A stretch of 64,000 bases of DNA from an uncultured virus (IMG/VR IMGVR_UViG_3300035520_001855) (IMGVR_UViG_3300035520_001855); one strand, 5' to 3'. Shown: positions 1-62,361, counted from the first letter of the stretch. The notes: generated by a model not told the origin, from the letters alone. Program-made: numbers and translations.

Positions 1-927
1 TTAATTAAACATATTAACTTTCCCATGTGAAGGCATTTTTACAACTTTAGATAAACTCAAGTCAGTATCATTGTTTGTATTTATACTATCTGTATAAATC
101 TGCACTTCACTAGTATGAAAATTTGTAAATATATTTTCTTTGTGTAGAACTACAATTAAATCATTTAATGTTTTTAACCCCAAATGATTATTTGATAAAA
201 TATCAACTATTTTGTCTGTATATTTCTCAAAAGTCTTATTGTTACATTTTTTACAATTATACCAATCTTTTTTAGATTTTAAATTGTTACAATTATTGAA
301 CCAACAAGGTCCTAACTTTTTATTTTGCACTTTTGCACCACCATTGCAATTTGATATTAATGACATCAACATACTGTAAAAATGTTCTATATTCGGACTT
401 ACTTTTTCATCTTTATCAGTAATTGTGTTATATAACTTTAATGCAATTAATGGATTTTTATTTATAGCTACGGTTCGTAAAACATTGTATTTTGCAAGTA
501 ATGACTTAGAATTAAAATCCACAGCACTACAACTAATAGACTCCTCTAAATATTTTTTATAGTACATTTCAATATGTTCACCAAATAAGAAAATCTGTTC
601 AACACAAGTATAATCAGCTATAAATACTCTTAACAGTTTTTTCTGTGTCTCTGAATTCCCATATAACCTCAAATTCTCAAAACTTAAATAAAAATTTCTT
701 GTAGCAGGACATGACACGTTGTCAATGGCTATGAATATATACTCATCATCTTTCAATACGTCAAATATATTTTTAAATTTTTTATAAACATTAGTATTAC
801 CATTTACGGATACCACACTACCATCAATATCAAGAATCTGTAAGAAAATTTTCCATAAAGTTACACCTATTAAATGTGTATTTTTATTTATTGATGTGCC
901 ATCTTCTGTTATTATATATAATCTCAC
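1..927 (-). CDS. TOPRIM-like putative nuclease (DUF4869-associated), copy 1
   Basis: N-terminal IITEDG, later IAIDNV, Cys cluster; GTG start overlaps upstream TGA; ends HGKVNMFN. Confidence 0.55.
   Translation of the reverse strand: MRLYIITEDGTSINKNTHLIGVTLWKIFLQILDIDGSVVSVNGNTNVYKKFKNIFDVLKDDEYIFIAIDNVSCPATRNFYLSFENLRLYGNSETQKKLLRVFIADYTCVEQIFLFGEHIEMYYKKYLEESISCSAVDFNSKSLLAKYNVLRTVAINKNPLIALKLYNTITDKDEKVSPNIEHFYSMLMSLISNCNGGAKVQNKKLGPCWFNNCNNLKSKKDWYNCKKCNNKTFEKYTDKIVDILSNNHLGLKTLNDLIVVLHKENIFTNFHTSEVQIYTDSINTNNDTDLSLSKVVKMPSHGKVNMFN
13..83. repeat. 71-bp direct repeat, copy 1 (partner 1872-1942)
   Basis: 53 bp identical (13-65 vs 1872-1924), then 2 mismatches; encodes the shared C-terminal tail. 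Confidence 0.95.
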
Positions 928-1373
928 ACAATCAACTCCCCATGAAAATCCGGATTAAAATATACTAAACGTATTGTATCATCCTTCATATATAATGTTG
1001 CACAATTCTGTAATGGTATCTGCAACTGTGGATAACAAGCTCTATTTACAATAATATATTGATTTGAATTAATATTTATCTGTTCTAACAACTGTGGCGT
1101 ATTTTGCACTACCTCATCAAAATTATCAATAATTATTAAACTATTTGTATATATACTAATATCAAGTTTATCATATAAACTTTGATTCTTCACAAACACT
1201 ATCGGTTTGCTTTCATTGCCTACTTTACCATTATCTACAGCTATTTTCAATTCATTTATCATGAAAGTTTTCCCAATTGCTGAATCCCCATCTATGCAGT
1301 TAATGTCGCCATTTAATTTTAAATCGAACTTTATTTTGCCGCTTTGAAACTTAATATTATCATATAAGATCAT
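924..1373 (-). CDS. Small P-loop ATPase (ABC-like Walker A/B half), copy 1
   Basis: GDSAIGKT Walker A, IIIDN Walker B-like; start moved to the ATG behind GGAG. Confidence 0.7.
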   Translation of the reverse strand: MILYDNIKFQSGKIKFDLKLNGDINCIDGDSAIGKTFMINELKIAVDNGKVGNESKPIVFVKNQSLYDKLDISIYTNSLIIIDNFDEVVQNTPQLLEQININSNQYIIVNRACYPQLQIPLQNCATLYMKDDTIRLVYFNPDFHGELIV

Positions 1374-1839
1374 TATAAACACGCTCCACTTCGATTTTTA
1401 GATTCTTATTAAAATCTTTTAATTCTATAATTTGGTTGTTAAAATATAAATTAAAATTTTCTAGTTTCTCGCACATATCTATAGACACTAAATGAGTTAT
1501 GAAGCATTCGATCTTAGATTGAATGAAATCTTTAAAAAAAACTTCTAAAACATTTTTACCACAATTATCTAATCGTATTGCAATTTCAGAGTTATTTAAA
1601 TGGTTCGCAACTATTAGGGTCTTTGTCCCTGCAGATAAATTTTCTACTGAAGTTACACCAAAATGTGTTTGAATTGTTCCTAAATTTATATCAATTATAT
1701 GTGCACCATCAATAGTTTGTATATACATAACATCTTTTTCATTCAACCCATAATCACGGAAAATTTCATGAAATTTAGAATCTATCGAAAAAATTAGTGG
1801 TCTAGTCAATAAATTTTTATTGGTGTAGATATTTAGCAT
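1360..1839 (-). CDS. DUF4869-family protein, copy 1
   Basis: ID..NLSAGTKTL..CGKN pattern. Confidence 0.7.
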   Translation of the reverse strand: MLNIYTNKNLLTRPLIFSIDSKFHEIFRDYGLNEKDVMYIQTIDGAHIIDINLGTIQTHFGVTSVENLSAGTKTLIVANHLNNSEIAIRLDNCGKNVLEVFFKDFIQSKIECFITHLVSIDMCEKLENFNLYFNNQIIELKDFNKNLKIEVERVYNDLI

Positions 1840-1862
1840 ATAATCACATCCTTTCTTAATTA

Positions 1863-2615
1863 TTAAAATAGATTAACTTTCCCATGTGAAGGCATTTTTA
1901 CAACTTTAGATAAACTCAAGTCAGCATCATTATTTGTATTTACAATATTAGACATTTTAATCAATTTTAATATCTCATTATGTAATACTGACTCCTTATA
2001 TAATTCATTGTATTTGTGTATAAATGTCAAATTATCATTTTCTCTATTGCAATTTTTACAGTCGTATATGTGCCCCTTCTGTTGATAATCACTACATGAA
2101 GATTTCCAGCAGTCACCATACACACCTTTACTTATCTTTATTGCTTTATTACCCTCAGTTATCTGTGACACTACGCAAGAGATAAAATGCTCAATATTTG
2201 TACAATTCATGTTTGGTATTGTACCTGCAATTTTAATAGCCTCGTCTACATTTATATAAAACAATTCTTGTACTCGATATAGTTGTTTTTGTTTCTCATC
2301 TAATAATCGCACATAACTCTTTAAATTTTTATATGATATAAAAATTTCTTCAAAGCAAATATAATCTGAGAAAACTATATTATTGTTTTGTTGATAATTA
2401 AGATATAAATCCCTAACCTCTTTATTATCAACATTATCAACAGCTAGATAAAAAAGATCTGTATCATTATACATATCTTCTAGTATACTATCAACATTTT
2501 TAATACCACTACAACATACAATATTTAACTCAATATTTAAATATTTCTGAATCATCTGCCAAAACTGATGCTCTGCTTTACCCTCATTGCATTCTGAGAT
2601 TAAATGTATCACCAC
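1863..2615 (-). CDS. TOPRIM-like putative nuclease, copy 2
   Basis: LISEC, CSGIKN, LAVDNVD, CFEEIF; paralog of 1-927; ends HGKVNLF. Confidence 0.55.
   Translation of the reverse strand: MVIHLISECNEGKAEHQFWQMIQKYLNIELNIVCCSGIKNVDSILEDMYNDTDLFYLAVDNVDNKEVRDLYLNYQQNNNIVFSDYICFEEIFISYKNLKSYVRLLDEKQKQLYRVQELFYINVDEAIKIAGTIPNMNCTNIEHFISCVVSQITEGNKAIKISKGVYGDCWKSSCSDYQQKGHIYDCKNCNRENDNLTFIHKYNELYKESVLHNEILKLIKMSNIVNTNNDADLSLSKVVKMPSHGKVNLF
1872..1942. repeat. 71-bp direct repeat, copy 2
   Basis: Matches 13-83. Confidence 0.95.
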
Positions 2616-3049
2616 GCCACCCTCTTTCGAATTGCTTGTGCATAGTATGATAACTCATATTGTTTCTTTTCTGCATTGAATTGCATTCTACAACAATTAA
2701 ATAAAGGCACATTTATCTTTGTATAAGCTCTAGATATCAGCACATACTGATTATCATTATCATTATTTATTAAGTCTATTATCTCAGGTTTTTGTAATGA
2801 TATTGAATCAAAATTATCAATAAAAATTACATTATTTTTAAAACACCTTAAATCCATACCTTTTGAATATAATATGATGGGCTTGTCGTATATTGGTGAC
2901 AACGGATCTTCCAAACCATACTTTAACATCTGCATCAATAGTGTTTTTCCTGACCCAGAATCTCCACTTATTAAAGTAACTGTTCCATTGATATCCAAAT
3001 CAAATAAATATTTTGGTGATCTTACTATCAATCTTTTCAGAATTATCAT
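2609..3049 (-). CDS. Small P-loop ATPase, copy 2
   Basis: GDSGSGKT, IFIDNFD, NQYVLISR; paralog of 924-1373. Confidence 0.7.
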   Translation of the reverse strand: MIILKRLIVRSPKYLFDLDINGTVTLISGDSGSGKTLLMQMLKYGLEDPLSPIYDKPIILYSKGMDLRCFKNNVIFIDNFDSISLQKPEIIDLINNDNDNQYVLISRAYTKINVPLFNCCRMQFNAEKKQYELSYYAQAIRKRVAW

Positions 3050-3521
3050 TTCGTTCACCCCCTAATGCATCTTTCATCGTAGTGCAAAATTTCTGTAGTG
3101 TACAACAAGTAGAGCCATTCATGAGTACTTTAACGTCCTTGATTTCTTTTCTAAATATAGAATAACTCAAAAATACTTTTAAATTTGTCTCTGCAAATTT
3201 ATCAAATATTTCATACAATGCATTCTCTCCGCAGTTTGTGACATCTAAACAGATGTCTAAATTCTCTTTAACTATATGATTTGCTAAAATTAATGTTTTA
3301 CATCCGGAAGATATATTATATATAGAAGTTAAGCCTTCAAATGTTTCAACTAAACCTGTTGATAAACTCTTAATTTCGGCATTGTCTATAACTTCCAAAA
3401 AATATTTATCCAGTTCATCTAATTCTCTAGTATTAATATGATTAAAAAAGAAAGCATCCACAAATGTTATAAATTTACATTTTTTTGATAACTTGTTTAA
3501 GTCATAAAACACACTAATCAT
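3000..3521 (-). CDS. DUF4869-family protein, copy 2
   Basis: IDNA..NISSGCKTL..CGEN. Confidence 0.7.
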   Translation of the reverse strand: MISVFYDLNKLSKKCKFITFVDAFFFNHINTRELDELDKYFLEVIDNAEIKSLSTGLVETFEGLTSIYNISSGCKTLILANHIVKENLDICLDVTNCGENALYEIFDKFAETNLKVFLSYSIFRKEIKDVKVLMNGSTCCTLQKFCTTMKDALGGERNDNSEKIDSKITKIFI

Positions 3522-3544
3522 AGTAACACCCCTTTTCCTAATTA

Positions 3545-4459
3545 TTAGAATAGATTTGTGGTGGTCACAGTTTCTTTTAAGTGTTCACGAGCTCGCATGA
3601 GTTGTTTTCCTAAAAGATTTTGTCCTTCCCATTTTTCTTGATGAAATCTGTTTTCATCTCTCATTGACAAACCGATGCCCCATATTCGATCCCTTACAGC
3701 ACACTCTGCTATAACTTGATTCTCAGTTGATAACAACTTAGACTCTAAATCTTTATTCTGGCTAAACTTACAAAGTAACCCTTCAAAAACGATATTTTCC
3801 CTATTGGTTATCCAAACTCCTTCTACGAAGTTTGATACTTGTCTTCCTAAAGATTTGATTCTAGCAACATCGTCTGTCTGCAAGATTTCTTTAGCTATGA
3901 CTTCATCATTAAAGAGCGTTGCTTTTTGGTGCATCATGTACTGCTCCATTGACGAGTACTTAACACCATTGTAATAGAATTCAGATAAATACCAATTGCT
4001 TAAATAGCCATTCTCTTCATCTGGATTATGAAAGAATACCATCGAATATGTTTCATCATATATTTTATATCTGTCTACAGCTAAGTTTATATCCATATCA
4101 TGTAATACATTATATTTTGAAATTAAATCCTTAGGCTGAATCAATGTCACCAGTTTTGAACTCGGAATACCCGTTTTCCACTGCTTTAATGAGTAGAATT
4201 CTCCTATCCATGTTGCCATATCATCATTCTGGAATGTTTCGCTATTCTTTAACATTTGAGTATTTTGCAATGCCTCTAAAATATCAGTAGCTGACATAGT
4301 ACAATAAATAGCATAGCCCTTATCAATGAAATTTCTAATTGCACTTTTTAAATATGAACTTATAAAAAATGCTAAATCATAATCTCTTTCTACGGCTAAT
4401 TTAAAAAGTTCACCTTGTGTTTCAGTAACTTCATCTAGATATGCTTCTGGACATCTCAT
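3545..4459 (-). CDS. Antitoxin-like N-terminal domain fused to NADAR (YbiA) domain
   Basis: GYLSNWY..SMEQYMMHQKA..IKSLGR..DRIWGIG..GQNLLGKQLM; ATGA-coupled to upstream gene; ends TTTNLF. Confidence 0.85.
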   Translation of the reverse strand: MRCPEAYLDEVTETQGELFKLAVERDYDLAFFISSYLKSAIRNFIDKGYAIYCTMSATDILEALQNTQMLKNSETFQNDDMATWIGEFYSLKQWKTGIPSSKLVTLIQPKDLISKYNVLHDMDINLAVDRYKIYDETYSMVFFHNPDEENGYLSNWYLSEFYYNGVKYSSMEQYMMHQKATLFNDEVIAKEILQTDDVARIKSLGRQVSNFVEGVWITNRENIVFEGLLCKFSQNKDLESKLLSTENQVIAECAVRDRIWGIGLSMRDENRFHQEKWEGQNLLGKQLMRAREHLKETVTTTNLF

Positions 4460-5142
4460 AATGTAAAATCCTCCCTAATAACATAGCTAAATCCCTTCGA
4501 TAATGTATTTCTGTCAGATTCCATTAAAACCTTCATTGCCTCTCTAGCCTCATCATCTCTTTTATTATACTTAATAGCATAATCACCTGTGACAGCCTCA
4601 GGCTCACCAATTTCATATATTTGTTTAAAGGCTTTCTCTGTTTTTAGACATATTTGATTTTCTAAACCGCCTAAATGAAATAGTTCACTTATCAAAGTAT
4701 AATCTATATTATCCCTAACAAAGTTTTTTGCTATAGAGAAGTAAGATGAATCTGCTCTCCACCCATATATGATGTCATACTTGCTGATGTCTAACCTAAA
4801 TTTAGATATGAACTCAGGTGCAAATCTCTTATATCTTATTGAGTTGTCTGCAGGTCTATGTGCCATTAGCTCGGCTATCCAGTTTAATGGTGACACATTA
4901 TTGAAATTGAATATAGCTAAATTACTAAGATCCAATTCATATGTGTGCAGATATCCTGAACTGTTACCTGTGCAAACGGACCATTCTTTTGCTAGCTCCT
5001 TATTTTGAGTTAGATAAAATCCTCTGCCATAGTCATGCTTATCCTCACCTTTTCCATATGTTGGAGTTACATTTTCATTTGGTGATCCATGATATACTAT
5101 AATCTTTTTATTGACATTTAAATTATCTATTTGATCTTGCAT
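4456..5142 (-). CDS. DUF3990-family protein (ADP-ribosyltransferase-like fold)
   Basis: YHGS..DYGRGFYLT..AKEW..YDIIYGWRAD..QICLKT. Confidence 0.8.
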   Translation of the reverse strand: MQDQIDNLNVNKKIIVYHGSPNENVTPTYGKGEDKHDYGRGFYLTQNKELAKEWSVCTGNSSGYLHTYELDLSNLAIFNFNNVSPLNWIAELMAHRPADNSIRYKRFAPEFISKFRLDISKYDIIYGWRADSSYFSIAKNFVRDNIDYTLISELFHLGGLENQICLKTEKAFKQIYEIGEPEAVTGDYAIKYNKRDDEAREAMKVLMESDRNTLSKGFSYVIREDFTL

Positions 5143-5149
5143 ATTAAAT

Positions 5150-5199
5150 AATCACCACCTTTAATTAAAACTGAATTTTCTATTGTTAGAATAAATTTG
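5150..5199 (-). repeat. Cassette junction/leader repeat (also 7308-7359 and 8723-8765)
   Basis: Minus-strand consensus AATAAAACAAACCNAGTTTTAATTAAAGGTGGTGA, ending in the RBS. Confidence 0.75.
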
Positions 5200-6781
5200 T
5201 AGTACCTAAACTAGTGAAGGCAGTACCTTTATATACAAATTGCTTGTAAAAATCAACACTATTATAGATATTCTTCTTCAATAGACTTTCTAAATATTTT
5301 TGTGTTTTACATAAAAACTCTTCAACATTTATATACACTATCTTAAATTCTTCAGAAAATCTTGTCTTACCTCTATATAAAACAATCTTATTTATAATAT
5401 GTGTTCCTGTTGCATTTTCAATATTCTTACAAAATTCTTCATCATTTAGATGTTTGCATTGATCCTTGACACACTTATCTGATAATTTAACTTCAATTGC
5501 AACGGATGTTCTTGTACTCAGATTCTTTACAAGTACATCTATTTCCCTGTCACTTACATCTCTATATTTTGTCACTCTGATAGTATCTCCAGTAACATTA
5601 AACTCTTTTGCAGAGAGTGTTGTCTGATAAAATACAATATCTTCCAAGATGCCACCGCAAATATCTTCTTTTAATTTGTTTAATATCTGATCCTTTTCGA
5701 CATCATTATAAATTTGGAACTCCTCTGATTCGCAAAGAGCAACTGCTAAAGCTTCCGCCTGACAATACCTCATTCCTGGTTGAGTGAATATATATTCTTC
5801 TTCACTCTCTGTTTTTGGCAATTGCCATAACACATCCATATCTTTCAAATACTGGATAATTGTATTTACAGCTTTAGTATCTACAATATTGAAAGGATTT
5901 TCCTTAACACCTAAATAAATTCTTATTCTGTCACATACAGAATCGGTATCTATAATATCAGTATTAACACTCGTAGACTTTGTCATCAATTCTACAAGTG
6001 ATCCTAAATCATGTGATTTAAAATCACTATTTATCATTTTTACCAAAAATCTGCGATTATGATATTCAATAACTTTTGTTATGAATGAGGGTAAATCATT
6101 ATGATCAATGATATCACTTAATATCTGATTTGCATAATTTTCACCTCTGTTCCATTTCTGCAAACTATGTATAATATTGTAGACTATTGCCGTATTCGAA
6201 TACTCATTTAGGTTGTCTTTATTATAGATCAGCTCACCATCTGTTAATGTTCCTCCAAATTTAATATATGAGATAATATCCTTATTGAGTAAATATTTAT
6301 ACTCTTTAAATGAAATATAAGTTGTATGCAGCAGGTGAGCTCTATCATATAGTTCATTATTTTTGGCTAAGAAAAATCCTAAAGAATCTGTACCAGATAA
6401 GACAATTTTCTTCCCCTCTATTGCATATCTATCAGCCAAAAAACTACAAGTTCCAATAAAATTCCTAGCTTTTGTAATTTCATCAATAAAGATAAATTTG
6501 CAATTCCTGTGTACCTCTATGGCCTCTTTTACTTGCCACATTGTTTCTTCTCCATCACAGGATAGAAGTAATGTAGTGTCATAGTTTGAAATATTTTTTA
6601 TTTCTTGTAACATCATAATTGTCTTTCCTGTGCGGCGTAAACCATATAAACAACACACCTTTCTATCATTAGGTGTAGTAATATAACTGTCTAAATCTTT
6701 TAGAATAAATCTACTTTTAAAAATACTCTCAAGAGAGTTTTCAACATGTTCTTTTAATTCATCTCCAAAATAAATATACAT
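5186..6781 (-). CDS. AAA_14-type ATPase with C-terminal PD-(D/E)xK-like domain
   Basis: GLRRTGKT, IFIDEI, VLSGTDS, REIDVLV..AIEVK; start at ATG behind GAGAGG; ends GTTNLF. Confidence 0.8.
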   Translation of the reverse strand: MYIYFGDELKEHVENSLESIFKSRFILKDLDSYITTPNDRKVCCLYGLRRTGKTIMMLQEIKNISNYDTTLLLSCDGEETMWQVKEAIEVHRNCKFIFIDEITKARNFIGTCSFLADRYAIEGKKIVLSGTDSLGFFLAKNNELYDRAHLLHTTYISFKEYKYLLNKDIISYIKFGGTLTDGELIYNKDNLNEYSNTAIVYNIIHSLQKWNRGENYANQILSDIIDHNDLPSFITKVIEYHNRRFLVKMINSDFKSHDLGSLVELMTKSTSVNTDIIDTDSVCDRIRIYLGVKENPFNIVDTKAVNTIIQYLKDMDVLWQLPKTESEEEYIFTQPGMRYCQAEALAVALCESEEFQIYNDVEKDQILNKLKEDICGGILEDIVFYQTTLSAKEFNVTGDTIRVTKYRDVSDREIDVLVKNLSTRTSVAIEVKLSDKCVKDQCKHLNDEEFCKNIENATGTHIINKIVLYRGKTRFSEEFKIVYINVEEFLCKTQKYLESLLKKNIYNSVDFYKQFVYKGTAFTSLGTTNLF

Positions 6782-6815
6782 AAAATCAACCTCTCTCATT
6801 TGTATTACAATGAAT

Positions 6816-7304
6816 TTATTCTTTATTACTACCATTTCCCCAGTATTTTGATGCTGTTTTTAATACATCTTTAAAATATTCATCATAATTACTGAAATAT
6901 TCACCAGTACTGACATCTTGAATACTGACTTGCATATTTTCATAATTCTCCATAAATAAGTAGGAGCATAGGTACATTTCAATATCCTTTATTTGTGATA
7001 TTTGAAAAATATATTTAAGGCAATCATCACCGAATATTGCTGAACTGTATATAAATGGTTCATCACATTTCAGCATTAAAATCAAGCCCTTGCATCCACC
7101 TGACAATTTCTCTGGTGGAAATGTTCCCAAAAACTCACTCTTTAAAATATTATTAGTCACCACTTCTGTCTTATCAACTGTGTTGATAATATTAATCACT
7201 CTTTCATCTTCCAGCCATTCATTCTCGTATAGCACATTAAACACTGCATCACAACTTCTTATTAAGTTATCCTGACTATCTAATTTAGTGAATATTTTTA
7301 ACAC
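6816..7304 (-). CDS. DUF4869-family protein, copy 3
   Basis: VDKTEV..SEFLGTFPPEKLSGGCKGLIL..FGDDC. Confidence 0.8.
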   Translation of the reverse strand: MLKIFTKLDSQDNLIRSCDAVFNVLYENEWLEDERVINIINTVDKTEVVTNNILKSEFLGTFPPEKLSGGCKGLILMLKCDEPFIYSSAIFGDDCLKYIFQISQIKDIEMYLCSYLFMENYENMQVSIQDVSTGEYFSNYDEYFKDVLKTASKYWGNGSNKE

Positions 7305-7345
7305 TCACATCACCACCTCTAATTAAAACTGGGTTTGTTTTATTG

Positions 7346-8719
7346 TTAAAATAGATTTGATGTTAAGATGTCTATAGTAACTTCTTCAGCTTTATTTAAA
7401 TTAGCTATAAATTCTTCCATCATTAATAATGGTAATACTGTTATGTGATTGTCTATATCAGCATCAAAGTCTTTTGGTACTTCTCCTAAATCAGCTCTAA
7501 ATACTACAAGCTCATCAATTGTTTTATCCTTCAACAATCTTTTACCTGTTTTATAATCTGCCTTTCCTGATTTTATTTCAAAACCATATTTCTTTTTCAC
7601 ATTTTGTAACCCGTAGGAACAAAAATCAAGTTCACCACTTGTCTTTGACAATGTTATAAAAGTTGGATTGTACACACTACCAGACATTTCATCGGTTAAT
7701 ACTTTAAATGCATAAGTCTCAAATAACTTTCCTTTAAAATCATCTTGTTTTGAGGTTTCCTGTCTTATTGTATTTAAGAAGAATGTATCATTAAAATAAA
7801 GTCTTTTGCATGGGATTATATTTTCAAAATCACCATCAACGGCTACATCAGCGTAGTCTGCTATGCCAGTTTCTATCAACCATCTCATGTAAATTGCTGT
7901 ATCTTGTACTTTAAATTTCATCTTAGCATTTGATTGCAATTCAGTATTTAAACTAGATATAAATTTATCATCGTCTAATCCAGTCTTCTCTTTTAACAAT
8001 GTCCTCGCAACACATCTATATAATTCTCTTATAGATGTCTGAAATTTTATATCGTCTAGATATCTCACACTCTCTTTTAATATAAGATTTAATAAGTCCT
8101 GTGTGTCTTTACTAAATATCTTATTTTCATTCAGTAATGTTTCTGCTAGTCTTGGATAGCCACCCATTTTTATATAAACATAGAAACACTCTAATCTTGT
8201 TTTAAATTTTCCCTTGAATGCCCTTTCAAACTCACTAAATTTTAATGTTGTCAATCTTAATACTGTTAAATCTCCTACAGGTAGGAAGAACTCTTTATTT
8301 TTTGTTATCATCCCCAAAAAGCTTCCTGATACAATGTAGCGTACTTTATGCGTTCTTGCGACTCTTCTAATAGAGTTATAGATTGCTGGTGTCTCTTGTA
8401 TTTCATCAATAAATATGCAGTTATCATCAGAATTTTGAATATCTGTATAAGTTTTAAATACATATTCCTCTATCACAAGTTTCTTGTTATTAAGAATCTC
8501 TGTATCAACATAATTTGTTATACCATCCGGAGTGGTCACAATTACCCCTCCTGTTAATAAGTTAATTTCAATAAATCTATTGAATTCATTTTTACAAAAT
8601 TCCCTTATTAAACTTGTCTTTCCAACTTGTCTTGCTCCTTCTACTTGTAAAGCTTGTTGTTTGAAACTACGATTCTTCCAAAACAACATATCTTTATATA
8701 GATCTCTTTTGATGAACAT
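7346..8719 (-). CDS. AAA_14/DUF4143-type ATPase-nuclease
   Basis: GARQVGKT, IFIDEIQ, VSGS, GGYP, GELDF..FEIKSG; ends TSNLF. Confidence 0.85.
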   Translation of the reverse strand: MFIKRDLYKDMLFWKNRSFKQQALQVEGARQVGKTSLIREFCKNEFNRFIEINLLTGGVIVTTPDGITNYVDTEILNNKKLVIEEYVFKTYTDIQNSDDNCIFIDEIQETPAIYNSIRRVARTHKVRYIVSGSFLGMITKNKEFFLPVGDLTVLRLTTLKFSEFERAFKGKFKTRLECFYVYIKMGGYPRLAETLLNENKIFSKDTQDLLNLILKESVRYLDDIKFQTSIRELYRCVARTLLKEKTGLDDDKFISSLNTELQSNAKMKFKVQDTAIYMRWLIETGIADYADVAVDGDFENIIPCKRLYFNDTFFLNTIRQETSKQDDFKGKLFETYAFKVLTDEMSGSVYNPTFITLSKTSGELDFCSYGLQNVKKKYGFEIKSGKADYKTGKRLLKDKTIDELVVFRADLGEVPKDFDADIDNHITVLPLLMMEEFIANLNKAEEVTIDILTSNLF

Positions 8720-8757
8720 AGTAATCACCACCTTTAATCAAAAACTTGGTTTGTTTT

Positions 8758-8789: not shown

Positions 8790-9035
8790 CTATTTACTAA
8801 ATAAACTTGTTGATACACTTGGTTTATCTGTTGAATGTGATAAATGCATATATACAACTTTCTCTGGTATTAAATCATCATCTATTGTTTCAATTATGAT
8901 ATCATGCTTATCCAAATCAAAACTTAGAAGCACATTGTGAATTAATTCATCAAAAGCCACAAATGTATTTTTACCACTAAAATGTGTCAATATTGCTTTT
9001 GTATCAATTATCCTGAAACACCTATATTTTGTCAT
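8790..9035 (-). CDS. Hypothetical protein
   Basis: RBS GGGGGAAG; ends STSLFSK. Confidence 0.65.
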   Translation of the reverse strand: MTKYRCFRIIDTKAILTHFSGKNTFVAFDELIHNVLLSFDLDKHDIIIETIDDDLIPEKVVYMHLSHSTDKPSVSTSLFSK

Positions 9036-17994: not shown

Positions 17995-18009
17995 TTTGAC
18001 GTGATAAAG

Positions 18010-52944: not shown

Positions 52945-54930
52945 TTAAACTGAAATATCTGCTCCACTTATATTTCCTACATAATCATACTTCAGTAATT
53001 GTAACAAACCTTTCTCATTATAGGCTTTGATTTTCTTATATGCATCTGTATTTGTAGGTTTTGCATATAAATTATTCAATATAATCATAGCTTCTCTTAT
53101 ATATTTCCTAACCATTTCATCATTACCTTTTAATGCATTATTGCATGCATATTTTAATTTGGAGACAAATGTACTTACATCAGCAAATTCAATTTCAGCT
53201 AAAATATTGATTGTCTCAGCTGTCGCTACAATATCTGTATCTATGAATTTTCCCTTTACTGATGCAAAGCTAAATGCATTCATTGGCACAAGACTTGTGG
53301 GTGCTACTCTTATTTTTGTACCATTGTCAAGATTTACCGTTACTTTATATGATTCAGGTTTTATTGGAGTTACATACATGTTATCATCTTTTCTAACAAG
53401 GCAGATATTTGATAATTTTACTGGTTCATCTGCAATTTTTGTTATAACCGCTTTCTGAACTTGTAAAAAGAATTCTTCCAATAAAGCTTCTAAATTTTCA
53501 CCGCTATCAAGATGAAAAATCTTTCTATTCAACGTGCGTATGAACTCTACATCAATAAAATCCTCCCATTGAACAATGTCCTCTAATTTAAAATCAATTG
53601 ATTTTGTTTCAACATATAGCATGTTTACATCAAAATGTTGTCCTGTTAAAAGAGAATTCAATGGTATAGCTTTTTGTGTAAAGCTTACATTATCTACACT
53701 TTGTATGGTTCCATATTTAAATCTACCCGGCTGTGCACCTGTAACAGCTATATCTTTTCCAACTAATTTAGAACATCTATATAGATGTTCTGTAAATGGT
53801 GCATAATTTGCTGTAAATAACTTACTAATCATACTTAAAATGATTCTATTACTGCCATCATTACCTAAATCAAAATCTGCACCATACTTCGCTGCAAGAT
53901 ATGCGATTATATAACGTTTTTTAACAGAATTTTGTTTCTTCTCAAATGAGAGTGTATCCCATAAACTACTTGTTTGGTCTGTTAAATACTTTTCTGTTTC
54001 ATCTTCTGAAAAGATAATAGCTTGTCCCATCAATGTTTTACTTAATGTATCTGGGTCAAGTTGCTGTTCTTCTGGTGACAAGAGACTTCTTGCAATCTCA
54101 GGATATTCACCCTTTTCTGTTCTCAAAATAGCAGTGCTTACAAGGTCACCACCATTATCTTGTTCAAGAAGAAATCTTAGATACTTGAACTTTGGTAATG
54201 TGTGCAAACACTCTGTCAAATAGCGTAAACCATTAATGTTATCTACTAAATTTGGAGACACAAATTCTATCTCACTAAATTGACTGTCTCTCTTTATATT
54301 ATTTACCAATGTAAGTATTTTAGTATTTGTGTTTACTGTATAACCTGCTAAGTCACCATTTGAATTTGATGTGAACTGTATTGGACCTACTATGATTTTT
54401 GTTGATACAGCCGTATCTGGGATATTCTTCAAAATCTCCTGTTTCAGTAACTCTAAATTTGACTCTAATACATTATCAACATAAATAAATCTATTATCTT
54501 CAAATTTATTAAATATGCTTTGCAATTCTCTTACTTTGTTTTTATCTTGCACACCATTGACTGTTATGTCGGTATGGTGTAACATATATAGAGTATGCAC
54601 TTCTTTTGTTGCTAAATCTATTCTGGTATTGAAATTCAAATTATCCATAGCTTTTGATTTCGTAAAGTATTTAGCTAAAGATTCAAAAGTCAATTTATAC
54701 TGTTCACCGTACTGTGCCAACAATTCAATATCAGAATAAATGTCGTTTAAAAAATTCAACACATCTTGACCTTGACCTGCTAACCCACTATATAACATCT
54801 CAAAGGCTATTAAACCTAAGTCGGTGTTACAAGCTTCTACTGTTTGATTTGTTAATTCCAGATAGAAATTTAAAGATGGTGCTAAATTAAATTTTGAATC
54901 ATCTTTCATTAATTCCTCAGGTATATTCAC
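52945..54930 (-). CDS. Hypothetical protein
   Basis: 661-aa ORF overlapping upstream stop. Confidence 0.8.
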   Translation of the reverse strand: MNIPEELMKDDSKFNLAPSLNFYLELTNQTVEACNTDLGLIAFEMLYSGLAGQGQDVLNFLNDIYSDIELLAQYGEQYKLTFESLAKYFTKSKAMDNLNFNTRIDLATKEVHTLYMLHHTDITVNGVQDKNKVRELQSIFNKFEDNRFIYVDNVLESNLELLKQEILKNIPDTAVSTKIIVGPIQFTSNSNGDLAGYTVNTNTKILTLVNNIKRDSQFSEIEFVSPNLVDNINGLRYLTECLHTLPKFKYLRFLLEQDNGGDLVSTAILRTEKGEYPEIARSLLSPEEQQLDPDTLSKTLMGQAIIFSEDETEKYLTDQTSSLWDTLSFEKKQNSVKKRYIIAYLAAKYGADFDLGNDGSNRIILSMISKLFTANYAPFTEHLYRCSKLVGKDIAVTGAQPGRFKYGTIQSVDNVSFTQKAIPLNSLLTGQHFDVNMLYVETKSIDFKLEDIVQWEDFIDVEFIRTLNRKIFHLDSGENLEALLEEFFLQVQKAVITKIADEPVKLSNICLVRKDDNMYVTPIKPESYKVTVNLDNGTKIRVAPTSLVPMNAFSFASVKGKFIDTDIVATAETINILAEIEFADVSTFVSKLKYACNNALKGNDEMVRKYIREAMIILNNLYAKPTNTDAYKKIKAYNEKGLLQLLKYDYVGNISGADISV

Positions 54931-55579
54931 TTCTAATCACCTCTGTTATTTTATTTTCGGACTTGTCACGTACCAAATTATACTGAACACGAGGTAAATC
55001 CTTGTATAGTGTATCTTTATGTTCAATTAAGATAATTTGATAACCATTATCAATTAGATTATGTAACAAATCCGATACGACATGTGTTGACTCCATATCA
55101 CCAGAATTGATTGCCTCATCCATAATCAAAATCTCACAGCCAGCTAAAATTTGAATCATTGTTGATATGCTGAAAGAACATATTTGTCTAAAGAATCTAC
55201 CGTTTTGCATTCTTGTTGGAAACAATCTATCGCCATGTCCTGTGTAGAAATCAATAATTTCTTTACCCCTGTAAGTTGAAGTTTCAAACTTCACATTAAA
55301 ATTATCTCCAGGAAAAATTTTATTTAAATTTTCCTTTACCTGTTCCTCAAGACACTTTAAGCGTTCAGCTTTATAGGAGTTTAATCCATTAGTGCAAAGT
55401 ATCTCAATTTTTTGGTAACTTGACTTAGCTTTAGTTATTAAATTTAGAGTATTGTAATACTTCTCAAGATCTCTTTTTAATACTGTTTCTTGCTCTTTCA
55501 ATGATTTAACATTATTTAAAAGACCTTCTAAATTATATATTGTCATGTCTCTTGAAGAACTACTATCTGCCGAATTCAT
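54917..55579 (-). CDS. SbcC/Rad50-like C-terminal half
   Basis: Coiled coil, degenerate signature MQNG, LIMDEA..GD, LIEH. Confidence 0.75.
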   Translation of the reverse strand: MNSADSSSSRDMTIYNLEGLLNNVKSLKEQETVLKRDLEKYYNTLNLITKAKSSYQKIEILCTNGLNSYKAERLKCLEEQVKENLNKIFPGDNFNVKFETSTYRGKEIIDFYTGHGDRLFPTRMQNGRFFRQICSFSISTMIQILAGCEILIMDEAINSGDMESTHVVSDLLHNLIDNGYQIILIEHKDTLYKDLPRVQYNLVRDKSENKITEVIRSEYT

Positions 55580-56669
55580 AGGTCATATCACGCTCTTTTC
55601 TGATATATCTGACACTTTCATTCCATCTCATTAAAACACAGATACCACCTACATCAAACTTAACAATATTTTTATATACTGCTATTTTAGCTATCGGACC
55701 AGATGTTAAAATATTCTTGATGTTCAATAAATCTCTTAATTGAACAGTTATCATTTTGTTTTTTATATCTGTATTTGATGTTGAAACAGCTCCTATATTT
55801 ATTCCATAAACTTCACTATCTTGTTTTACTGTGATTAATTTCTGGTCAAAATTTATAGCACATACACACGATGAGTCTGCTTTAAGAATTTTTGATGAAA
55901 TGTTACCTAAGAAATGTCCAAAACTTCCTAAATCTAATTCAGCTGAGTACAATGCACCCTCATTGCTAAAATATTGTGGTGGAATCATATCAACTGATTT
56001 GATATTTGCTTTTCGAACACCCAAAATAAAACCTGGCCTATTCAATATAAGATAATTAGCCATATCATATACCGAACAATCCACTTTAAATCTATCAATT
56101 TCTTTTAAAGCATCAATTGTTAAACCAATTGGATTTTTTACACCCATATTCTCATTCAAGTGAATAAAAACTTTTAAAGATGTTGAAGTTGTTGTTATAA
56201 TGTTTGGTGTTATTATTAAACTGTGATTTGTTGACATACACATATCAATTAACACTTTTGCAAATTCTAATGCATGTATTTTTAAAGGTGCACAACCTGT
56301 TAAATTCATGAAGTTGTAAACATCTGCTATTCTAGATTCAGGTATTCTGCTTGCAACACCAGAAGCAGCAATTACTGATTCATTATTTTTATTTACATAA
56401 CTGATAGATACCAATGAATTCTCTGTGTCCAAATCAATATTAAGACTTCCTTCATCCAAACAAGTTGCAATAACTAAATTTGAATCAATGCTATACACTT
56501 GAAGCTCATTGGCTGATTCTCCATTAAACTTTACAGCCTTGAAGTACTCTATATTATCAACTAAAAATATCGTCGATGTTTTTGACAAAATTAATAAAAT
56601 ATTGTCAGACATTTTAGCAAGAGCTGCTAATCTTCTCGACTGCTGCTTGTTCATTAATATTTTTGTCAT
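55563..56669 (-). CDS. Hypothetical protein; candidate divergent sliding clamp
   Basis: 368 aa (DnaN size), alternating helix/strand look, same block as DnaX; no diagnostic motif. Confidence 0.35.
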   Translation of the reverse strand: MTKILMNKQQSRRLAALAKMSDNILLILSKTSTIFLVDNIEYFKAVKFNGESANELQVYSIDSNLVIATCLDEGSLNIDLDTENSLVSISYVNKNNESVIAASGVASRIPESRIADVYNFMNLTGCAPLKIHALEFAKVLIDMCMSTNHSLIITPNIITTTSTSLKVFIHLNENMGVKNPIGLTIDALKEIDRFKVDCSVYDMANYLILNRPGFILGVRKANIKSVDMIPPQYFSNEGALYSAELDLGSFGHFLGNISSKILKADSSCVCAINFDQKLITVKQDSEVYGINIGAVSTSNTDIKNKMITVQLRDLLNIKNILTSGPIAKIAVYKNIVKFDVGGICVLMRWNESVRYIRKERDMTYEFGR

Positions 56670-56947
56670 TTAGCAAGCTCCTCTCTAGCCTTATTTGCAC
56701 TTTCTAAGAACTTGTTTTTAAGAAGCTCTTTGTTCCTTTTTATATCTTCCAGAACACTAAGTGTGTATTCTTTATCTGCAAGTCGCTCATAGTCTATTTT
56801 AATAAAATCTTTACCTTCCAAGAGACTACGCAATCTTTTTATTGATTCCTCAAGCTGTGTTTGTGCTTTTATATTCTCATTCTTTGCAAGCTGATTCTTT
56901 GCCTGTAAATCCTTAAAAATACTCTCTAAATTAGTCGTGTCACCCAT
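56666..56947 (-). CDS. Small coiled-coil protein
   Basis: Charged heptad-like sequence between the SbcC halves. Confidence 0.65.
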   Translation of the reverse strand: MGDTTNLESIFKDLQAKNQLAKNENIKAQTQLEESIKRLRSLLEGKDFIKIDYERLADKEYTLSVLEDIKRNKELLKNKFLESANKAREELAK

Positions 56948-57978
56948 CCAGGTACACCTCCTTTACCAAGTTCATCAAATAACTCCAACGTTTCAGCATC
57001 ATTTTCCAAGTCTTTCCTTATAGCTGCAACTGGATCCATTAACGTTAAATCATATTTTTTAATTAGTGATTTCTTGTATTTTGCTGTCTTATATTTTTCT
57101 TTATCTTTGCTTGCTTGAAGTGTGTCAACTGTTTCTGTATCATACTTTGGTAACTGAATTACAAACTTATCTATGTTGTATCCTGTTTCATCAAAATCTA
57201 TGTAATACAGATTCCTTTCAGACTCCGTGTATATAACTTCATTTATATTTGTCAAACCTAGGCTCCCACAAAAATGTGCATTTGTAAAAGGGACATCACC
57301 ATAATCCCAATCAAACTTATAATCTCCCATAAGCATATGATTATGCCCAAAAAAAGCCTCATTAAAGTGGGATATAGCACAACCATCACAAATTTCACCG
57401 TATTCAATATACTTTGTGTCAACTTGTGCTATATTTAACTTTGCTAAAGAGTCAGACAATTGTTTTGTCATCCAGTAATTATGACAGAACAAGAAATTTA
57501 TCTTTCCTTCAGGTAGTATCACTCTTGTATTGAAATGATTAAAAATCATTTGATTGTCATATATTTCCAAGCTGTCCGGTATTCTTATAATAGGTAAATT
57601 ACCAGTTCCCTTTAATCCAAGTGTCCGTGCTGACATCGACTCAACATCACCAACAAGAGACCAAAATGGGTTTTGGTCTCTATATGTAATTTCATGGTTT
57701 CCTATCACAGAGAATACTCCATTGCAAATCGCACGTAAAACTTGCATCTTTTGAAACCAATCAAGATAAGCTTGACTATCTGCAAATTTTGAATGAAAGA
57801 TATCACCTAAAAATACGACATATGTTTTTTCTCTACGGTTATTTTTTATTATGTTCACCAGAGTATCATAAATTCGTACACACTCTTCCTTGTAGTCTTT
57901 TCTATTGGAGATATTTTTACACCAGAAGTGTGTATCTTGAATGATATAAATCCTTGAAGGTTTATTAGGCAATTGCAT
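56926..57978 (-). CDS. sbcD: SbcD/Mre11-like metallophosphoesterase nuclease
   Basis: QDTH, FLGDIFH, IGNHE, FGHNH, CGSL. Confidence 0.85.
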   Translation of the reverse strand: MQLPNKPSRIYIIQDTHFWCKNISNRKDYKEECVRIYDTLVNIIKNNRREKTYVVFLGDIFHSKFADSQAYLDWFQKMQVLRAICNGVFSVIGNHEITYRDQNPFWSLVGDVESMSARTLGLKGTGNLPIIRIPDSLEIYDNQMIFNHFNTRVILPEGKINFLFCHNYWMTKQLSDSLAKLNIAQVDTKYIEYGEICDGCAISHFNEAFFGHNHMLMGDYKFDWDYGDVPFTNAHFCGSLGLTNINEVIYTESERNLYYIDFDETGYNIDKFVIQLPKYDTETVDTLQASKDKEKYKTAKYKKSLIKKYDLTLMDPVAAIRKDLENDAETLELFDELGKGGVPGWVTRLI

Positions 57979-57980
57979 AA

Positions 57981-59126
57981 TCACAACTCCTTTACCCATA
58001 TTTGTCCACAAAGTGGGCATGTTTTATTTTCTTGTTTAAACTTTTCCAAATCTTGTGTAGTTTTTGCTAAATCATTTTTAGAAATAATCAAATAATCTAA
58101 AGAATTCACTAAAGTAATTAGAGCTTCTTCTATTAATGTTAGATCAGTAAAAGTTAATAACATCTTTTCCAGTTTTACTGTATCAACAGTAGGTTTTTCT
58201 TTGCTAAATAATATGACATCTTGTAAAGCTTTGTGAACTGATTCATATAGTGTGATGTCATTTAGAATTTCAGATAGTCTGTTGAAAATTTCATCATCAA
58301 TGACTGGTTTTGATTTTATAGTTGTTACGTACGCTAAATTCGATTCAATATTTTCCAAGTCATGTAGTTGATTAATCACATACTCAAGACCTTCTAAATC
58401 TGTTGTAGACCTTTGCTTGATTGCTGAAACATACTGTAGTTCAACCTCGGCTTTATCATATATATTCAATATGCCATTCAATTCTTTGCAATAACTTATA
58501 AGTGAATCAACTTCGTTGACATCACAATATGTCTGTAAACCTCTCAATCTTTCTGAGTATTCTGTATATAAATATTTGACATTCTTTTCAGTTGCAGTTA
58601 ACCTCGTAATAAACTCTCTGGCTAACTCTTTTCTGTGTCGTAAGTCTTCATGATCAAGATATAATGACATGATCTTTGTGTTATATTCCATATCTGTTGT
58701 GTCATATAACATTGGTGATTCATTGTCAAGAATGTTCAAAATTCTTAAAGAATCTGCACATGTTATTAAATTTAACATTTTAGCAACTTTGTGAATATCA
58801 GAACGTTCAATACGTTCTGCTGTTCCATCAGGATAACCAACGACTGTGATCACAGCAGTTGATGTAAACCTAAAACAAATTTGTGTATTATCTTCCAAGG
58901 TTATTTTGAAATCACCATAACTATTCTCAGGGTAATTTCTTATTATAGCCTTTCTTGTCTTTGCATCATATTGCTCAAAATATAATCCTAATCTTAAACA
59001 TTTAATGAACACAGATTTTCCTGTTTCTGATTTAGCTTCAATTACTGTTAAACCATTTAAACTTAAGTTAATTTTTCCATTTTCCCATGATTGAATGTTA
59101 TTAAATTCAAAAGATTTCCATTTCAA
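57981..59126 (-). CDS. SbcC/Rad50-like N-terminal half ending at the zinc hook
   Basis: NIQSW, AKSETGKS Walker A, coiled coil, CPLCGQ at C-terminus. Confidence 0.8.
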   Translation of the reverse strand: MKWKSFEFNNIQSWENGKINLSLNGLTVIEAKSETGKSVFIKCLRLGLYFEQYDAKTRKAIIRNYPENSYGDFKITLEDNTQICFRFTSTAVITVVGYPDGTAERIERSDIHKVAKMLNLITCADSLRILNILDNESPMLYDTTDMEYNTKIMSLYLDHEDLRHRKELAREFITRLTATEKNVKYLYTEYSERLRGLQTYCDVNEVDSLISYCKELNGILNIYDKAEVELQYVSAIKQRSTTDLEGLEYVINQLHDLENIESNLAYVTTIKSKPVIDDEIFNRLSEILNDITLYESVHKALQDVILFSKEKPTVDTVKLEKMLLTFTDLTLIEEALITLVNSLDYLIISKNDLAKTTQDLEKFKQENKTCPLCGQIWVKEL

Positions 59127-59139
59127 ATGAACTCCTCCA

Positions 59140-59478
59140 TTAACATACATATTTCATTACATTACTAAACTGGATATCTGTGAAATGTCTTGGGTGGTAC
59201 ATCAAATCTAAAAATTCCGATTTACTACAATCAATTCTTATTTTTATAGTTTGCTTGTTTGTATCTATAACCAAATAAAATTCAGGTTCTGTAAATACAT
59301 GCTCCTCCAAACCATAAACATCAATGATATCTTCATCATGATCAAGTTGTATAACAGTATACCCCTTAAATACAGCTACTTTTTTATTACCGATTAAACT
59401 AATATCCAAATGTAATCTTATGTTTGTATATAATCCTGCATCTTTTGGTACTTCCCTTAATTTCTCGTATATTTGCAT
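59140..59478 (-). CDS. Hypothetical protein
   Basis: GGGGGTGA RBS. Confidence 0.65.
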   Translation of the reverse strand: MQIYEKLREVPKDAGLYTNIRLHLDISLIGNKKVAVFKGYTVIQLDHDEDIIDVYGLEEHVFTEPEFYLVIDTNKQTIKIRIDCSKSEFLDLMYHPRHFTDIQFSNVMKYVC

Positions 59479-60977: not shown

Positions 60978-61091
60978 AATCTTACCTCCTAAATTAATTA
61001 ATTAATTGTGAGCTTTCTTCTTATTTGCTCACCTTTGTATATTGTAACCAGCTAAAGTGTTAAAAGATAAATTCGTAGATATTTTATTACT

Positions 61092-61976
61092 TTAGTGCCC
61101 ATTTTCTGAAACAAATTCCTCTAAACTATGATTGAAAATAAACTTTTCATCTTTCAAAGTATCAAATAATCTGTTCAGATATTTTTGAGCTGAATTATCA
61201 TTACGCAATCTTTCGTCTACATCCTTAGCTCCATTACCAACTCTTATTTGAATTGTGTTTGGATTAAACTTTTTGCAAGTTTTATATAGCTGTGTTCCTG
61301 CTATGTCTGAATCTGAAAACACAATCCAGTTTTTTATATATCGCAAGTAATCCCTATGATACTTAGATATATTTGAACCCAGCAGAGATGTTGCTGGGTG
61401 CCCCAATGTTTGTAAAGTTATTTTGTCAAAGATACCGTCAACTATGCAAATATATTGATTCTCAAGTGCATTAAGATACTCATCTCTATTCATAAACCAA
61501 TATCTTTCTTTTTTGAAATAGTTATCAGCTAAATATAGGTATGGAATCAGCATAAGCTTTTCTTCTTCGCTTTTACACTCATTGCCATTATCATAACCAA
61601 CAAAACCATGTACTTGATTATCAAATCCTCTTAAAGGAATTACAAGTCTCCCCAAAAATGTACAACGTCCTGTTGGTTGATAGAGTCCTGTTGCAACTAA
61701 ATCATTACAATTTATCTCTTCTAAAATGTTAGCTATGATTTGGTTATTTATTACTGGAAAAGCTTTCATTTTTATAAGATATTCTGCATCACAAATTCGC
61801 ATAGTTTTTGCAAATTCTCTTAATAACGATTCTTGAACATTTGAATTGTTAGCACTCCACAAATGATCAACTAATTCTGTATAAATTGTTATATTGTCAA
61901 TCGAACTCACTTGTTGTATCAGCTCCTGCTCTGTATATGTGCTCAATAACAGTCTTAGTATCGACATCGTATTCAA
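61092..61976 (-). CDS. DnaG-like primase core (TOPRIM)
   Basis: GRLVIPLR..GFVG, IVDGIFD, LLGS, FSDSDIAG, KDVDE. Confidence 0.8.
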   Translation of the reverse strand: MNTMSILRLLLSTYTEQELIQQVSSIDNITIYTELVDHLWSANNSNVQESLLREFAKTMRICDAEYLIKMKAFPVINNQIIANILEEINCNDLVATGLYQPTGRCTFLGRLVIPLRGFDNQVHGFVGYDNGNECKSEEEKLMLIPYLYLADNYFKKERYWFMNRDEYLNALENQYICIVDGIFDKITLQTLGHPATSLLGSNISKYHRDYLRYIKNWIVFSDSDIAGTQLYKTCKKFNPNTIQIRVGNGAKDVDERLRNDNSAQKYLNRLFDTLKDEKFIFNHSLEEFVSENGH

Positions 61977-62361
61977 GATAACCTGTCAAATCCAATCCTG
62001 CTATTTTAAACTTACTATTGCTATAGACAGTTTCAACCTTTTGCTCACTTGATACATCAATATCTGTTGAAGTGTTTAACAATTGTTCAATAGAGATGTC
62101 AATATTTGCCTTATTGATTATAGTTAGTAAAGTATGATCAACATTAGGTTGACTTAAATAGTCTATGAGCATCTCAAGAACATGCTTACAATAAATACCG
62201 TCCACATCTTGTGGTAAATTGTCAATTAACACATTTATAGATGCGAATTTCGTATCCGGTGCGTAATTTATCACACTCTTTAAATACTCATTCGTTCTTA
62301 TGTCTATAGGCTCAGCAAGTATACCCTCTAAAGACTTTCTAATCTTCTTTGTGTCTATCAT
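61897..62361 (-). CDS. Hypothetical protein
   Basis: ATGA-coupled; ends DTTSEFD. Confidence 0.6.
   Translation of the reverse strand: MIDTKKIRKSLEGILAEPIDIRTNEYLKSVINYAPDTKFASINVLIDNLPQDVDGIYCKHVLEMLIDYLSQPNVDHTLLTIINKANIDISIEQLLNTSTDIDVSSEQKVETVYSNSKFKIAGLDLTGYLEYDVDTKTVIEHIYRAGADTTSEFD

Follow-up and report, generated by a model that had tools for sequence, protein, structure and literature searches.

A recurrent C-terminal TT[N/S]LF tag on unrelated proteins of an uncultured viral element, with a divergent beta sliding clamp as its possible reader

Tagged proteins in the window

The DNA analysed here, called the window, is a stretch of 64,000 nucleotides from an uncultured virus (IMG/VR IMGVR_UViG_3300035520_001855). 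Its GC content is about 30%, and the minus strand carries almost all genes. A short peptide of the type Thr-Thr-[Asn/Ser]-Leu-Phe recurs at the C-termini of about 15 of the encoded proteins, which belong to at least 13 unrelated protein families. This recurrence is real and strong. An earlier reading made without database searches (the sequence-only reading) had listed 17 such C-termini, and all of them were present at their 3' coordinates on the minus strand; 13 show LF, one MF and three EF.

All tags described in this paragraph lie on the minus strand. At the start of the window, the 308-aa open reading frame (ORF) 1-927 has the tail KVNMFN (1-21), and the 250-aa ORF 1863-2615, the final gene of a three-gene coupled cassette, ends in KVNLF (1863-1880). 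The NADAR protein 3545-4459, a fusion of PDC-M42 components B and C, ends in TTTNLF (3545-3565). Two AAA_14 / PDC-S01 ATPases follow, which are remotely related only (pairwise E = 0.096); they end in TTNLF (protein 5186-6835, tag 5186-5203) and TSNLF (protein 7346-8731, tag 7346-7363). Further on, the 81-aa ORF 8790-9035 has a near-terminal STSLFSK (8790-8813), the 329-aa ORF 9109-10098 the variant KTSEF (9109-9126), and the 111-aa ORF 14461-14796 the tag PTSLF (14461-14478). ITYLF (18315-18332) was found on an XRE-type HTH protein (18315-18908), QSQNLF (19326-19346) on the ORF ending at 19326, and TTNLF (20044-20061) on the 238-aa ORF 20044-20760. Five tandem paralogs (23200-26491) consist of a 26-residue repeat with the consensus QMxxIRxGLxxGLDVSIYAKPEF, and three of the five are tagged: 24044-24718 with NTSLF (24044-24061), 24732-25175 with TTSLF (24732-24749) and 25889-26491 with TTTNLF (25889-25909). 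An LRR_5 protein (35333-36061) ends in ITTLF (35333-35350). The variant TTSEFS (36148-36168) closes the 151-aa ORF 36148-36603, which lies directly downstream of a sigma-70 region-4 protein (36621-37055), and TTSEFD (61897-61917) closes the 154-aa ORF 61897-62361 in the replication module.

One internal copy, TTDLF (50627-50641, minus strand), was found in the UvrD-like helicase 50306-52924. It stands in the context ..STSDNATTDLFSSDDD.., an acidic, S/T-rich, low-complexity C-terminal region past the helicase core, and it is distant from every gene junction.

The carrier types named in the sequence-only reading were thus confirmed for the NADAR, AAA, HTH, LRR and repeat proteins. Two others had to be given up: the tag at 61897 sits on the 154-aa ORF upstream of the TOPRIM protein (primase 61092-61976) and not on that protein itself, and the ART-like DUF3990 protein (4456-5142) has no tag. 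A membrane-protein carrier was not confirmed.

Two cassette types match candidate defence systems of PADLOC (PDC-M42 and PDC-S01), and DUF5688 and DUF3990 proteins are encoded near tag carriers. In the candidate system PDC-M42 (3545-5142, minus strand), components B and C are fused in the NADAR protein, which lies downstream of the DUF3990 (ART-like) component A. Two Cys-rich carriers belong to no family, and several further carriers are likewise without a family. The 26-residue-repeat paralogs matched no Pfam family; homologs were present in Firmicute genomes as well as in numerous large viral contigs. A word-index search found no homolog of ORF 36148-36603, and an ESM Atlas search with a 661-aa ORF gave no match.

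The position of the tags within cassettes followed the rule proposed beforehand, by which a coupled cassette is marked on its last gene alone. The region 1-8731 holds 11 genes, of which five stand before a spacer or the window end; the five tags of this region are on exactly those genes (chance 1/462), and none is on the six overlap-coupled genes. The expectation that signal-peptide proteins lack the tag also agreed with the data, as the tag is missing from the four proteins whose N-termini look by eye like signal peptides.

Occurrence, enrichment and form of the tag

LF was the exact C-terminus of 12 of the 69 main ORFs. Inside the proteins the LF dipeptide occurs 83 times per 20,213 residues, from which about 0.3 LF ends would be expected (binomial P = 1.6e-16). 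Phenylalanine was the last residue of 14 of the 69 ORFs, compared with 4.6% of residues overall. The pattern [ST][NSTY]LF occurred 11 times at a terminus and three times internally. A six-frame scan for [ST][ST][NSDT][LEM]F yielded 14 matches, 11 of them in minus-strand frames, and nine of these 11 lay within two residues of a stop codon.

For comparison, the window and the control loci were run through one and the same ORF caller. The enrichment anticipated in the sequence-only reading was clear: against 12 of 69 ORFs here, LF ends were found in 2 of 905 ORFs from 44 viral control loci, in 16 of 1325 ORFs from 112 viral loci picked by the tag-encoding DNA pattern, and in 2 of 418 ORFs from 32 genome loci. 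LF ends were also rare when all control loci with a GC content below 0.33 were taken together (9 of 911 ORFs); therefore, the tag is not explained by AT-rich codon usage. A search of IMG/VR with the TTNLF-stop DNA pattern returned 112 stretches, none with more than one LF-ending ORF of the tag type, and these were read as scattered chance matches. The tag was specific to the element among all loci compared.

In the 12 LF tags, the residue before LF is N in seven cases and S in three. Position -3 is occupied by T in nine tags and by S, Q and V in one each; position -4 by T in six, I in two, and K, P, S and N in one each. The motif was exactly C-terminal, with a free carboxylate, in 12 of the 17 listed cases, and in four or five variants it stopped one or two residues short of the C-terminus. 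A second form, T-[TS]-S-E-F, was found three times at or near the C-terminus and once internally. The stretches ahead of the tag are polar, rich in S, T, N and Q, and linker-like in appearance. We favour reading the tag as a portable short linear motif that is translated and specific to the element, T-T-[N/S]-L-F-COOH, with T-[TS]-S-E-F as a variant.

The exactly C-terminal position in those 12 cases and the polar, S/T-rich stretch ahead of the motif would also suit a C-terminal degron, in which the exposed hydrophobic LF-COOH would direct a protease of the host or the element to accessory proteins and so make these short-lived. Toxin-antitoxin pairs typically have labile antitoxins, and one of the tags is on the NADAR partner of an ART-like gene. 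A degron is nevertheless considered quite improbable. The motif lies one or two residues inside the protein in the four or five variants and is fully internal in one copy; putative effectors (a nuclease-like protein and the ATPases) are tagged as well as the putative antitoxin; and family scans of the window proteins revealed neither a protease nor an adaptor. Furthermore, known bacterial C-terminal degrons are an LAA-like tripeptide or a MuA-like basic tail, whereas the ends found here are [NS]LF or SEF.

Comparison with homologs and codon usage

It had been suggested that the tail was appended to captured genes, and the homologs agreed with this. The tag was present in none of 119 NADAR homologs and in none of 96 repeat-protein homologs (0 of 54 ORFs in 43 viral loci, 0 of 42 in 32 genome loci). 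The tail of the NADAR protein 3545-4459 runs about 10 aa beyond the point where its 119 homologs end, and the PADLOC models stop 10-21 aa short of the C-termini of the carriers. In sequence comparison, the tag is an appended feature relative to the homologs.

Two homologs with tag-like ends were rejected as tagged relatives. The NADAR homolog P0084 (end ..TSLFSSS) is a chimera with a restriction-modification specificity fragment. The repeat protein of L158 (end ..DSMNLF) ends in a truncated repeat unit; the locus is otherwise untagged, and the genome has no clamp match. In one group of viral loci from IMG/VR (L010-L033), the repeat-protein homolog has an acidic tail, ..DDFGDDFGDL (..DEDYGDDFGDDFGDL), which we take to resemble the C-terminal tail of SSB. 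The repeat family therefore wears different tails in different elements. One or two further ORFs per locus in this group end in ..QDAVEYEF, which may be a different tail system.

Within the tags, Leu is encoded by CTA, TTA or TTG, Phe by TTT or TTC, and Thr by ACA, ACC or ACT; the variation in Leu and Phe codons is synonymous throughout. For Ser, the codons AGT and TCA are both used, and these have no position in common. The TTSEF variant has the main tag's peptide pattern on different DNA. Conservation of the tag DNA covers about 15 nt ahead of the stop codon, and nothing is conserved beyond it; the next start codon is 14 to 185 nt away. On the coding strand, 15 tag DNA copies were recognisable, 12 of them in frame and without an earlier stop. 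Taken together, the synonymous codons, the untagged homologs and the internal TTDLF far from gene junctions indicate the peptide as the selected level, and we argue that selection probably acts on it.

None of the other three copies gives a translated tag. Behind the repeat paralog 23200-24030, the TAG stop is followed in frame by QTHTNLF and TAA TAA, so that an untranslated THTNLF-stop (23176-23193, minus strand) lies seven codons on; the TAG may be either a nonsense mutation or a site of read-through. An intrinsic-terminator-like hairpin (23129-23161) is found past this copy. In the paralog 25189-25875, the tag DNA lies in another frame (..TQQQIY, 25189-25212, minus strand) and its T run is short by 2 nt. 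Behind ORF 20794-21396, TTSVF-stop is hidden in the -1 frame (20774-20791, minus strand), downstream of a seven-T run (T TTT TTG in frame, within 20794-20860, minus strand). The run may act as a slippery site, or the length of this homopolymer may differ by 1 nt. With a -1 shift, or with a single additional T, the protein would be 17 codons longer and end in ..ETTSVF; programmed frameshifting, phase variation and an error of assembly are all conceivable. We read the three copies as decayed or conditional tags. The claim of selection on the peptide rather than on the DNA thus stands as far as the synonymous codons and the TTSEF variant with its other DNA go, and is limited by these copies, in which the nucleotides are in part conserved within the window regardless of frame.

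Cassette junctions

Several features may be marks of recombination at the 3' ends of cassettes. ORFs 1-927 and 1863-2615 are 35% identical overall, yet over the last 25 residues and about 75 nt they hardly differ. This tail module (1-130 and 1863-1990, minus strand) reads ..NTNNDxDLSLSKVVKMPSHGKVN[LM]F and points to gene conversion in recent times or to a tail segment that is mobile. Sequence is also shared by the junctions behind 5186 and 7346. CTA is used for 4 of 12 Leu codons in the LF tags, compared with 9% of Leu codons overall. We take this to mean that tags are spread and homogenised by recombination at the 3' junctions of cassettes and can be lost.

The same observations would be expected if the tag were the by-product of a cassette junction acting at the level of DNA or RNA, that is, if a boundary of about 15 nt (ACA ACA AAT YTA TTY TAR) served cassette exchange or an mRNA function and the peptide were a tolerated passenger. 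Apart from the near-identical 75-nt tail, the common sequence after 5186 and 7346 and the CTA excess, this explanation would cover the restriction of the mark to the last gene of coupled cassettes in 1-8731 and the persistence of three copies that are untranslated or out of frame. It would also cover a plus-strand copy of the tag DNA (11124-11141) in a 1.2-kb non-coding gap beside the integrase, which scores 18.9 bits on the tag matrix; by a rough estimate, about 0.3 matches of this kind are expected by chance. Nevertheless, a pure DNA signal needs no frame, and 12 of the 15 copies are in frame without an earlier stop. The Leu and Phe variation is all synonymous, Ser changes between AGT and TCA, and TTSEF keeps the peptide pattern and not the DNA. 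Beyond the stop there is no conservation, with the next start 14-185 nt away, and the spacers of 14-44 nt leave no room for an attC-type inverted repeat. Sigma-70-like promoter matches are no commoner than in shuffled sequences, and no promoter- or terminator-like site tracks the tags. A junction signal with a passenger peptide is accordingly judged to be distinctly unlikely, and the peptide is retained as the selected level.

Three further explanations at the nucleic-acid level were rejected. The -1 slippery heptamer A AAT TTA was found in only three of the 12 LF tags and fails as a general explanation. An alternative genetic code was discarded, as the TAA and TAG stops precede a Shine-Dalgarno sequence and a start codon. 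A promoter or terminator role of the tag DNA was likewise discarded: sigma-70-like matches did not exceed those in shuffled sequences, and promoter- or terminator-like sites do not track the tags.

Genetic setting and a candidate clamp

Short accessory-gene cassettes fill 1-27 kb, and the run is broken by a tyrosine integrase and a Tn916-type excisionase (12306-13944). This integrase is the single recombinase in view; it has Phage_integrase-family domains and adjoins the excisionase. The region 40-64 kb is a replication and recombination module. It comprises a DnaX / delta'-like clamp-loader subunit (40280-41572, minus strand), a 5'-3' exonuclease (44771-45775), an actin-like partition protein (47531-48778), a RecJ-like exonuclease (48771-50309), the UvrD-like helicase (50306-52924, minus strand), Rad50- and Mre11-like genes (54917-59150, minus strand), the untagged Toprim primase (61092-61976) and the C-terminal portion of a family A polymerase (PolA-like, 63097 onward). 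Family scans of the window proteins found no capsid, portal, terminase or type IV secretion genes. We read the window as a probable segment of a large element from a low-GC Firmicute, of phage or phage-plasmid type; the label is tentative, since the window is without structural or transfer genes.

Searches for related elements gave negative results throughout. Phage and plasmid collections gave no megablast match to stretches of 40-60 kb, and among phages the helicase had tblastn matches only at less than 60% identity. No related element emerged when IMG/VR was searched with the clamp loader, the UvrD-like helicase and RecJ, when clamp alignments were run against IMG/VR and GTDB genomes, or when JGI metagenomes were searched with the tail-module alignment and the exact 51-nt tail sequence.

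Between the Rad50- and Mre11-like genes, the 368-aa ORF 55563-56669 (minus strand) encodes what fold prediction and structure search indicate to be a very divergent beta sliding clamp. The T4 clamp gene likewise adjoins its Rad50- and Mre11-like genes. The ORF had no match in Pfam, including the DnaN models, in NCBIfam or among PHROGs, and a profile of its family matched no PDB sequence; only 19 relatives were found among 1.84 billion representatives. Clamps of sister elements are 33-55% identical to it; P0123 and P0141 (33%) lie on contigs of 110-158 kb. AF2 with the single sequence reached a pLDDT of 31; an 18-sequence alignment was used instead and gave a model with pLDDT 86.8 and pTM 0.82. 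In Foldseek searches of the PDB with this model, the top matches listed were all DnaN-type clamps (E about 1e-15, TM 0.58-0.66), and the matches include E. coli clamp entries with a bound LF dipeptide. An ESM Atlas structure search gave TM 0.70-0.74 to DnaN clusters. With this clamp, recognised by its predicted fold, and the DnaX-like gene, the element has a clamp system of its own. The idea of an element-encoded hub such as a clamp, raised in the sequence-only reading, has thereby gained a concrete gene in the predicted clamp, together with a DnaX-like loader; the role of this protein as reader of the tag is that of a candidate. Upstream, a 93-aa ORF (56666-56947, minus strand) with the N-terminus MGDTTNLESIF overlaps the clamp gene by 4 nt.

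The tag as a possible clamp-docking label

The tag may be a clamp-docking label, directed to the element's own or the host sliding clamp and akin to the clamp-binding motifs of bacteria and T4; we regard this as a real possibility, somewhat short of probable. One common reader would bind the exposed Leu-Phe-COOH, and the likeliest reader would be the divergent clamp 55563-56669, or possibly the host clamp. By docking on it, the tagged proteins would ride on the replicating DNA of the element. New cargo would acquire the tag when a cassette recombines at its 3' junction, which would explain why only last genes are tagged and why tail and junction DNA are near-identical. Many carriers end defence-like or toxin-antitoxin-like cassettes or have DNA-related domains (NADAR, the ATPases, the HTH regulator).

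In PMC11139829, the bacterial clamp-binding motif (CBM) is given as Q-aliphatic-x-[L/M]-[F/L], with QLxLF as the best form. According to the same source, it often stands at the extreme C-terminus on a disordered tail, so that one hub serves many unrelated clients; the LF moiety alone binds the clamp, in subsite I; and a free C-terminal carboxylate and acidic flanks aid binding. Position 2 is described there as tolerating substitution and position 3 as often Ser, Asp or Asn; the delta motif AMSLF has no Gln, and the Pol V motif is QLNLF (PMC11139829).

Compared with this description, the tag is alike in ending with Leu-Phe preceded by Asn or Ser, and in being a short motif on unrelated proteins. 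[L/M] followed by [F/L] is found in 14 of the 17 listed ends, the three EF ends being misfits. As judged from the NADAR tail, the ends of the PADLOC models and the S/T/N/Q-rich stretches, the tag also seems to lie outside the folded domain, as the CBM does. It differs in having no Gln (0 of 12) and Thr at position 2 (9 of 12) in place of an aliphatic residue, in the Glu variant TTSEF, and in its carriers, which are mostly accessory or defence-like proteins and not polymerases or repair enzymes. The element clamp, for its part, matches no DnaN Pfam model, and its family profile has no PDB sequence match.

Several observations weigh against clamp docking. Gln at CBM position 1 is absent from all 12 LF tags, and only one of the 12 has an aliphatic residue at position 2. 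The SEF variants have Glu in place of the Leu or Met of the motif, a poor fit to a hydrophobic pocket. The PolA-like C-terminus, the DnaX-like protein, the 5'-3' exonuclease, RecJ and the primase are without a terminal tag, and for the LRR and repeat-protein carriers a role at DNA is not evident. The last-gene rule is positional and not functional, so it fits a genomic mechanism as well as docking. The three decayed or hidden copies at 23200-24030, 25189-25875 and 20794-21396 imply that the tag is dispensable for some carriers. Relatives in which clamp and tag might co-vary did not emerge from the searches of IMG/VR, GTDB and JGI. A complex prediction with a clamp dimer and the last 32 residues of ORF 20044-20760 gave 0.19 and 0.07 (mark 0.32) in a run without controls, and counts neither way.

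Some of these points would sit equally well with an address label for a partner other than a clamp, for example for loading into a virion or a transfer machine, a reading that we consider unlikely. With such loading, proteins of defence or anti-defence would travel along with the DNA. The evidence for a translated and appended tag applies to such a label just as well. The canonical replication proteins are untagged, as are the signal-peptide-like proteins (by eye), and the carriers match candidate defence systems (NADAR / PDC-M42, PDC-S01), with DUF5688 and DUF3990 nearby. The window, however, has no capsid, portal, terminase or type IV secretion gene and hence no machine in view, and the internal TTDLF of the helicase hints at replication proteins and not at cargo. 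Capsid-targeting signals known so far, such as those of the T4 internal proteins, are N-terminal.

If docking on a clamp is accepted as a working reading, a more far-reaching version can be framed, which we hold to be doubtful. The element would have a private address system, in which its clamp has been re-tuned together with a TT[N/S]LF-COOH label. Recombination at the 3' junction would add the label to the protein that comes last in each imported defence or anti-defence cassette, and foreign systems would thereby be recruited onto the replicating DNA of the element. In some genes the label could be turned on or off by stop-codon read-through (23200) or by a -1 frameshift or homopolymer slip (20794-21396).

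If a clamp or some other hub is what the tag docks on, captured genes can be domesticated by a mobile element through the addition of five residues. The sliding-clamp toolbelt would then extend from replication and repair enzymes to defence-like cargo. A simple sequence rule would also be at hand for clients of phage hubs in uncultured genomes, as well as a portable experimental handle.

Relation to known systems

That no described system of this kind exists, as had been stated at the outset, was too strong. The CBM (PMC11139829) and the T4 epitopes (PMC2988020) are described analogues. Searches of open-access full texts brought up no account of a TT[N/S]LF tag, nor of defence-like cassettes with tags of the clamp type.

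In PMC2988020, T4 gp43, gp33 and gp55 are described as having a hydrophobic, interchangeable clamp epitope at the C-terminus; in gp55 it is borne by a divergent segment, maybe an unstructured linker. The T4 clamp gp45 is a trimer (PMC2988020). The element resembles T4 in its loader gene and, by model, in a clamp of its own. The T4 epitope is on transcription factors, and here TTSEFS is on a 151-aa protein beside a sigma-like gene. The sigma-like protein itself is untagged. Three proteins including the polymerase are concerned in that account of T4, whereas there are about 15 carriers here and the PolA-like C-terminus (ORF ending at 63097) is untagged. The modelled clamp has a bacterial beta-type three-domain fold, unlike the gp45 trimer described there.

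Phage Mu offers another example of phage use of a clamp, as its regulator MuC reportedly uses the host beta clamp for late transcription (PMC12867686). It differs from the present case in that, as described there, a single protein and the host clamp are involved.

With regard to cassette structure, the window can be compared with integrons. Their attC cassettes are promoter-less, have one orientation and a recurring 3'-end sequence, and some are defence-like. In the window, unlike integrons, no attC-type inverted repeat is present, nothing is conserved past the stop, and the recurring element is translated in frame.

Other features of the window

The Rad50/SbcC-like ATPase is apparently split, with the Walker-A half at 57981-59150 and the ABC-signature half at 54917-55579 (minus strand). 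An Mre11-like gene, the 93-aa ORF and the clamp gene lie between the two halves.

Two giant secreted proteins (1170 and 1331 aa; 27581-35148, minus strand) combine BspA-type LRR, Big_3, dockerin and SLH domains and are borne on this mobile element.

A tRNA-like gene of 92 nt (17904-17995, minus strand) scored 45 bits with the Rfam tRNA model. ARAGORN assigned it to Asn(att), or to Phe(aaa) with a 5-nt intron. The fold has an 8-bp anticodon stem and a 12-nt loop, which makes it a non-standard tRNA.

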